Part shown: positions 33,088 to 33,664 of the stretch, one piece after another
Layout: every line of letters starts with the position of its first letter
How positions within the stretch are numbered: position 1 is the stretch's first letter
Assembly (NCBI RefSeq): GCF_016903815.1
Contig: NZ_CP069973.1
Origin: Escherichia coli
GTDB taxonomy: Bacteria > Pseudomonadota > Gammaproteobacteria > Enterobacterales > Enterobacteriaceae
DNA length: 64,000 bases
Strand: one strand, 5' to 3'
The notes under the pieces: generated by a model
What the model saw: only the letters and a program-made list of their open reading frames with translations
What the model was told of the DNA's origin: nothing
Database searches by the model: none
Program-made: the position numbers and the translations under genes

Positions 33088-33117
33088 GAACTCCATCCAG
33101 TCGTTTGGGGTTGCTAA
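32191..33117 (+). CDS. insF: IS3 OrfB (InsF, DDE transposase catalytic domain), here 308 codons with read-through past the IS end
   Basis: [34 protein letters not shown]... The normal 288-aa product would stop at 33055-33057. Here that codon reads TAT, and the ORF continues 20 codons into flanking DNA. OrfAB is normally produced by a -1 frameshift near CCAAAAGG (about 32155). Confidence 0.85.
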
Positions 33118-33664
33118 TGACGTCCTGCATCCGCTTAATCTGGTCGGGCGTAGACATATAATCCCACAGGGTGAGCAGAACCTTTTTTGCGGCTACACTA
33201 TTTCCCTGATCTGATACTAATGCCATATAGCCCCATAAACTATCCCTCAGCCAGACACCATCATAGTGGGTTTCTGCCGCTGTTTTGTCATCTTCGAAAG
33301 TAGAAGCAAGAATAAATGTTCCCCAGGGTTTCTCCGTCAACGTTAACTTTCGTGTGTTTTCTGTTAATGTTAACAACCCTTGAATTTCGTCTTTGGTATA
33401 GTGGCTCTTTATTTCATTTTTTAATTTGGCTGAGTGAATCAAAAGACGATAATTAGGATACTTATCTGGATTTAACGATAAATAACTTTTATCTGTTGCT
33501 GCCCCCGTGGAATTAAGAATGTTAAATACAGATTCACTCGTCACTTCTGCCCCTGTCGCCTGGCATGTGCCGCACGAAAATATACCAGCGAGCAGAAGAG
33601 TTAATGCAGATTTCCCTTTCATAAAATATTCCATCAATCGTTTGTTAAAAGCGTAGATAACCAC
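33071..33664 (-). pseudogene. 3'-truncated gene for a secreted protein, possibly a glucoamylase-like (GH15) fragment, interrupted by IS3
   Basis: 197-aa ORF with a signal-peptide-like N-terminus (MKGKSALTLLLAGIFSCGTCQATG) and a WLRDS motif. The reading frame terminates inside the IS3 right end, so the native 3' part is missing. It may correspond to the K-12 ygeQ remnant, but I cannot confirm this. Confidence 0.45.

Follow-up and report, generated by a model that had tools for sequence, protein, structure and literature searches.

The gene cluster for the second type III secretion system of Escherichia coli (ETT2) has undergone widespread mutational attrition (PMC3032704; PMC11068852). One of its genes, which lies beside glyU, is known as ygeQ (b2863) in E. 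coli K-12, as pkgA (ECs3736) in O157 Sakai and as EC042_3075 in the enteroaggregative strain 042; these are the same gene at the same locus. The gene (ECs3736 = b2863) is listed as "phosphorylase kinase and glucoamylase", and the name pkgA derives from its likeness to phosphorylase kinase (PMC3977695). A passage in another paper tentatively proposes, on the basis of Pallen 2003, that pkgA encodes an ETT2 effector (PMC2808357). Here we describe an open reading frame (ORF) next to glyU in a stretch of 64,000 nucleotides of E. coli DNA (contig NZ_CP069973.1, RefSeq assembly GCF_016903815.1; hereafter, the window). This ORF is almost certainly a dead 5' remnant of ygeQ/pkgA that was left behind by a deletion of ETT2 associated with the insertion sequence (IS) IS3. 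In the shared part, the remnant is 98-99% identical to the genes of K-12, Sakai and 042, with the same signal peptide and the same WLRDS motif, but the lesion differs: ygeQ of K-12 carries a GGA to TGA nonsense mutation at codon 265, two residues ahead of the conserved WEE motif, and its homology stops at nucleotide 1137, an independent inactivation, whereas the remnant in the window is cut by IS3 at nucleotide 535.

When the region was compared by megablast with 5,426 complete E. coli genomes, it proved to be ygeQ, whose annotation reads "glycoside hydrolase family 15 protein" (GH15). The intact gene consists of 1611 nucleotides and encodes 536 amino acids, as in strains RUT3575 (WP_000676900.1) and CE10 (WP_000676897.1). 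The window retains nucleotides 1-535, that is, codons 1-178 (178 of the 536) and the first base of codon 179, at 99.4% identity to the intact allele; given this identity over 535 nucleotides to the 5' end of an intact 1611-nucleotide gene, the remnant is not a chance ORF. Three substitutions separate it from the intact allele, and the sole non-synonymous one, A122G, affects a residue that is conserved in at least 90% of the homologues. Homology to the RUT3575 allele ends at position 33088 by both blastn and tblastn; codon 179 is a hybrid of ygeQ and IS3, after which IS3 supplies four codons and TAA. A preliminary description of the window, made from the letters alone, had drawn attention to a 197-residue ORF with 33088 as its lower coordinate and had called it an orphan 5' gene fragment for a secreted protein, probably a decaying island gene. 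The ORF is real: it runs along the minus strand from 33071 to 33664 in the ORF listing, with the 197 codons counted from a GTG, and 33088 is the first base outside IS3. The features that make up the remnant are as follows.

33088..33622, minus strand: 5' remnant of ygeQ/pkgA, nucleotides 1-535 of the 1611-nucleotide GH15-like gene (blastn and tblastn against the intact RUT3575 allele; RefSeq pseudogene call).
33071..33087, minus strand: new C-terminus, (L)ILPT and TAA, from the right inverted repeat of IS3 (translation across the junction).
33554..33622, minus strand: predicted Sec signal peptide, residues 1-23 (MKGKSALTLLLAGIFSCGTCQA|T) (inspection, hydropathy, N-terminal helix of low predicted local distance difference test score, pLDDT).
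33239..33253, minus strand: WLRDS motif (W124, R126, D127), the first conserved GH15 region, residues 124-128 (alignment of 81 homologues; coordinates verified).

The missing 3' part of the gene was sought with the full-length sequence. Neither tblastn nor blastn detected further pieces of ygeQ elsewhere in the 64-kb window, and in strain 550, a complete genome with the same junction, the full-length gene has a single match, to nucleotides 1-535. Thus, the C-terminal partner is lacking, as the preliminary description had supposed. Together with an identifiable lesion, the IS3 junction, and with 178 of 536 codons left, these absences characterize a pseudogene, and nothing in the data contradicts this reading. 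RefSeq, through its annotation pipeline PGAP, already labels the locus as a ygeQ pseudogene that lacks the C-terminus; for example, in E. coli strain 7/2, which is 100% identical here, PGAP marks 33089-33634 as "ygeQ, incomplete, missing C-terminus". The feature is, accordingly, an already known, ordinary annotated pseudogene.

Translation probably does not begin at the GTG at 33664. The ATG at 33622 (MKGKSALTLLL...; MKGKSALTLLLAGIFSCGTCQATGAEV...) is the start annotated for intact orthologues and is most likely that of the remnant ORF, although PGAP begins the ygeQ pseudogene at the ATG at 33634. Translation from 33622 would yield a product of 183 amino acids, consisting of 178 ygeQ codons, the hybrid codon and four IS3 codons, followed by TAA (LILPT*). 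Its N-terminus, MKGK + SALTLLLAGIFS + CGTCQA|TG, is built, by inspection, like a Sec signal peptide with n-, h- and c-regions: two lysines in the n-region, a hydrophobic core of 12 residues (mean Kyte-Doolittle hydropathy of about 2.2 across residues 5-17) and C-Q-A ahead of the likely cleavage site. In the AlphaFold2 model of the full-length protein, the N-terminal helix is detached and of low confidence. Many homologues have hydrophobic N-termini as well, and two carry lipobox-like motifs. The secreted-protein N-terminus recognized in the preliminary description is therefore Sec-like by both inspection and hydropathy.

The IS3 element at which the remnant ends and the gene on its far side are placed as follows.

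31830..33087, plus strand: IS3, 1258 bp, with orfA and orfB and a G>T substitution at 33057 (terminal inverted repeats; comparison with the E. coli C copy; ORFs).
31279..31829, plus strand: yqeH, which the left end of IS3 cuts at codon 184 of 210; the ORF runs on to 31848 within IS3 (comparison with CE10 YqeH).

The element has the length of 1258 bp, the imperfect but alignable inverted repeats (TGA...TCA type) and the two reading frames arranged for a -1 frameshift, orfA (31886-32194) and orfB (from 32191), that define IS3, and PGAP likewise assigns it to the IS3 family, with its transposase flagged as a pseudogene. The right inverted repeat ends in ...GGGTAGGATCA at 33087, so that the fragment is indeed cut by the IS3 end, as first described. 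A target duplication of 3 bp was looked for at the two ends of the element and is absent; the flanks are CTA and GAA, and the same CTA|GAA flanks are found in E. coli C. In CE10, which has a nearly complete ETT2, these flanks lie at positions 8380 and about 35227 of the corresponding locus, so that about 26.8 kb, including an IS1 of CE10's own, is missing from the window. Given the absence of a target duplication and the distance of about 26.8 kb between the flanks in CE10, the structure is a deletion junction and not a simple insertion, which refines the preliminary description: the gene was truncated by a roughly 26.8-kb IS3-associated deletion of ETT2. The lost stretch encompasses yqeI-yqeK, ygeG-ygeH, all genes for the type III secretion system (T3SS) apparatus, a GhoT/OrtT-like gene and the last two thirds of the GH15 gene; judged from sequence comparison, the loss relative to CE10 is essentially all of ETT2. 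On the opposite side, the truncated yqeH ORF finishes with DLTQQ* contributed by IS3.

A single IS3 now lies between codon 184 of yqeH and nucleotide 535 of ygeQ, and the 26.8 kb or so between these points in an ETT2-bearing strain is gone. The structure is best explained either by homologous recombination of two IS3 copies that had the same orientation or by an adjacent deletion that IS3 promoted. Strain 1585m1, whose ygeQ is the one IS3-interrupted but otherwise complete copy among those listed, was considered as a source of the precursor and rejected: there, IS3 lies at approximately nucleotide 966 and in the opposite orientation relative to the gene, and so represents an independent event.

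Several observations concern the element and its neighbour in their own right. The window copy of IS3 differs from that of E. coli C at two positions. The G>T substitution at 33057 changes the stop codon of orfB from TAG to TAT; lacking this stop, orfB continues across the right inverted repeat and on into ygeQ sequence in antisense, ending at 33117 with 20 codons added. The 34 best-matching genomes with the junction are 100% identical over a 200-bp junction query that spans 33057, and E. coli C, E. coli B and the other listed genomes show one mismatch in this query, which was confirmed for E. coli C to be position 33057. The truncated form of YqeH, a LuxR-type regulator from the far end of ETT2, is called by RefSeq an intact 189-residue 'hypothetical protein' (WP_001389254.1).

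Of the 5,426 complete E. coli genomes, 189 have the exact IS3/ygeQ junction. E. coli C and BLR(DE3), a derivative of E. coli B, are two of them, and both show the identical layout yqeG-yqeH'-IS3-'ygeQ-glyU-actS. E. coli B and C, both laboratory strains, thus carry the same deletion allele, with coinciding gene order, flanks and junctions; between yqeG and actS (5.9 kb), five substitutions and one indel separate them from the window. Specific to the window, in comparison with E. coli B and C, are the G>T at 33057 and an IS1-associated deletion of 31 kb beyond actS. The allele is old enough for a group of clinical isolates to have it in common with E. coli B and E. coli C. The block of approximately 7 kb that carries it (28001-34878) matches E. 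coli C at 99.8-100% identity per kb, and the identity for the neighbouring 23001-28000 is 97.3-99.1%. This mosaic pattern of sequence identity suggests that the ETT2-deleted IS3 allele is shared via recombination or local common descent rather than through whole-genome relatedness.

At least 80% of the length of ygeQ is present in 2,969 genomes, many of which have an annotated intact GH15 protein and some of which carry point lesions or IS insertions. Apart from the K-12 nonsense mutation, the lesions include truncations at nucleotides 1027 and 808 and insertions of IS1 and IS3, and the protein database contains frameshifted and other short forms of YgeQ. This spectrum fits the published attrition of ETT2, and the many independent lesions of the gene across E. 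coli bear out the notion of a decaying island gene that was put forward in the preliminary description. The remnant is one more documented instance of that attrition and, as such, matters little.

The full-length protein passes the threshold of Pfam family PF00723 narrowly (25.4 bits against a cutoff of 22; residues 94-401), the 264-residue form of K-12 falls below it (20.1 bits), and the fragment in the window, taken alone, has no Pfam match at E<=10 and no NCBIfam match. By these scores, the ancestor is a GH15 member, and the fragment by itself is unrecognizable. The AlphaFold2 model of the full-length protein, built with 81 homologues, has a pLDDT of 92.5 and a predicted template modelling score (pTM) of 0.91 and shows the (alpha/alpha)6 barrel of GH15. 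In a Foldseek search of the PDB, it matched, with a probability of 1.00, the GH15-like domains of phosphorylase kinase alpha and beta, a glycosidase of the 5z3a series and the glucoamylases 1ayx, 1gah and 3eqa; the top structural matches comprise phosphorylase kinase alpha and beta, glycosidases of the 5z3a/7c24 series (isomaltose glucohydrolase-type), fungal glucoamylases and dextran dextrinase. The glucoamylase-type affiliation that had been read from the WLRDS motif therefore stands for the full-length orthologue. At the sequence level, a PDB search with the single full-length protein returned only weak matches, to the GH15-like domains of phosphorylase kinase alpha and beta, and the family profile retrieved phosphorylase kinase alpha at E = 2.3e-7. 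No classical GH15 enzyme was found by sequence with this profile in the PDB; the link to these enzymes came from the structure search.

As for the possibility, named in the preliminary description as grounds for abandoning it, that no homologue covers a longer protein, hundreds of longer homologues exist. They comprise 490-610 amino acids and are found in E. albertii (77% identity), Yersinia enterocolitica (60%), Commensalibacter, Elusimicrobiota, Planctomycetota, Synergistaceae, Clostridiales, Bifidobacterium and Bdellovibrionales. Conservation in the alignment of 81 homologues extends along the whole length, with R126, W267-E268-E269, G339-G340-E341-S342, E431 and E491 invariant; within WLRDS, which aligns to AWVRDN of phosphorylase kinase alpha, W124, D127 and S128 are each conserved in at least 90% of the sequences. 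The active site of GH15 enzymes is built from a W-x-R-D segment, a WEE motif that supplies the general acid and an S/P-E-Q/S-Y motif that supplies the general base. We take E268/E269 (in WEE, residues 267-269) and E491 (in LPESYN) to be the catalytic acid and base, by resemblance to the WEE and SEQY-type motifs of GH15, and on this motif reading the ancestor looks catalytically competent. The fragment retains the first of the three active-site segments, and both WEE and E491 lie beyond the cut. With both conserved putative catalytic glutamate motifs past the truncation, the fragment cannot be an active hydrolase. Up to residue 178, it holds only the barrel helices 125-136, 139-156 and 159-170, about three of 12. 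If made at all, the 183-residue pre-protein would have, after its signal peptide, a small N-terminal region and then approximately three helices from the start of the (alpha/alpha)6 barrel.

Against this background, the other conceivable origins of the ORF can be compared. Misassembly is frequent at IS boundaries, but an artefact or a chance ORF is vanishingly improbable here: the same junction in 189 independently assembled complete genomes, well-studied laboratory strains among them, refutes an artefact, and the 99.4% identity to a real gene refutes a chance ORF. A simple insertion of IS3 into ygeQ, with the 3' part of the gene just across the element or elsewhere in the genome, has next to no probability either, even though such insertions do occur, as in strain 1585m1, where both halves of the gene are present around the IS3. 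In the window, it is yqeH and not the 3' part of ygeQ that lies on the other side of IS3, and the absence of a target duplication, along with that of a second ygeQ match in the window and in strain 550, refutes simple insertion.

Somewhat less remote, yet still very improbable, is the idea that the 183-residue ORF encodes a functional short secreted protein, either complete at that length or a new protein retained for its function. It has kept its native upstream region, its start codon and its signal peptide intact, and the allele persists in 189 genomes; however, this persistence is explained by clonal descent and linkage, the C-terminal codons (the hybrid one and four more) derive from IS3, and the product would have about a quarter of the barrel helices, neither conserved glutamate motif and no Pfam domain. 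Nor did a complete protein of this length, which the preliminary description had named as evidence against a fragment, gain support. A protein search with the fragment scored 95 candidates, without the full-length clusters among them, and so informs on short forms only; all the short relatives are truncations from Escherichia, 69-100% identical and with differing end points, whereas the homologues of other genera have the 490-610 residues given above. For the interpretation of the ORF as a dead remnant left by an IS3-associated deletion, three points count on the other side. With the native upstream region and start codon in place, a truncated polypeptide could still be made; the catalytic roles of E268/E269 and E491 are putative, being assigned by motif resemblance; and a precursor allele, with IS3 at nucleotide 535 flanked by a target duplication and ETT2 intact, was not found among the matches listed, so that the order of events is only inferred.

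Upstream of the remnant, the sequence up to the tRNA gene is retained.

33623..33859, minus strand: glyU-ygeQ intergenic region, retained upstream of the fragment, with no promoter shown (window sequence).
33860..33933, minus strand: glyU, tRNA-Gly(CCC), landmark of ETT2 insertion (ARAGORN, Rfam; PMC3977695).

The preliminary description had thus placed the fragment correctly next to glyU. A scan of 33000-34000 for promoters and terminators gave results no better than shuffled sequence and revealed no convincing ygeQ promoter, and Rfam detected no RNA element within the fragment. Directly 3' of glyU, at 33770-33856, is an 88-bp stretch that is absent in K-12, where six unrelated bases take its place, and kept in most other E. 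coli.

Farther along the window, an IS1 of 768 bp (34879-35646) joins the region upstream of actS (ygeR) to that upstream of uacT (ygfU). At this site, 31,092 bp are missing in comparison with K-12 BW25113, namely the purine/urate catabolism cluster with xdhABC, ygeV-ygeY, hyuA, yqeB/C, mocA, ygfK, ssnA, xdhD, xanQ, guaD, ghxQ and ygfS/T; E. coli C and B, which have the same IS3 deletion, retain xdhA there. The window also contains the expected core-genome small RNAs OmrA and OmrB (19844-19931 and 20047-20128, minus strand), 6S RNA (ssrS; 60413-60596, plus strand) and a Sib antitoxin RNA beside ibsC (61245-61395, plus strand). The gene ygfX (cptA), at about 46424-46837 on the minus strand, is a pseudogene with an internal stop in the record of the 100%-identical strain 7/2.

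The family to which the remnant belongs bears on the effector proposal for PkgA. Its homologues occur, among others, in Bifidobacterium, Clostridiales, Elusimicrobiota and Commensalibacter, and the N-terminus of PkgA is Sec-like. In the three neighbourhoods inspected (Yersinia, Commensalibacter and Bifidobacterium), T3SS genes were not found around the homologues, and these contexts share nothing that would amount to a conserved neighbourhood from which a substrate could be inferred. We infer that a Sec-type N-terminus, Gram-positive homologues and the lack of T3SS neighbours are more in keeping with a Sec-exported stand-alone enzyme than with a T3SS effector. Tentatively, and with a little less than even confidence, PkgA could be seen as a Sec-exported, periplasmic or extracellular enzyme from a widespread, stand-alone, biochemically uncharacterized GH15-like clade that is the nearest bacterial relative of the glucoamylase-like domain of phosphorylase kinase alpha and beta, and not as an ETT2-injected effector directed against host glycogen. 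In a weaker variant, the 183-residue remnant may still be produced and exported by E. coli B, E. coli C and the clinical strains with this allele. The Sec-type signal of the family sits uneasily with the published effector hypothesis, and the activity of the family is still putative.

Compared with the described families, the full-length ancestor shares the helical barrel, the W-x-R-D segment and WEE with GH15 enzymes (glucoamylase, glucodextranase, isomaltose glucohydrolase), but it is a very divergent member, with 11-19% identity to solved GH15 structures, no NCBIfam equivalog and a putative activity. The GH15-like N-terminal domains of phosphorylase kinase alpha and beta (Pallen 2003, cited in PMC2808357) are the best matches of PkgA in the PDB in both sequence and structure. 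However, phosphorylase kinase is eukaryotic, and its subunits are regulatory, exceed 1000 amino acids and have WER where PkgA has WEE, whereas PkgA is a stand-alone bacterial protein of 536 amino acids with a signal peptide.
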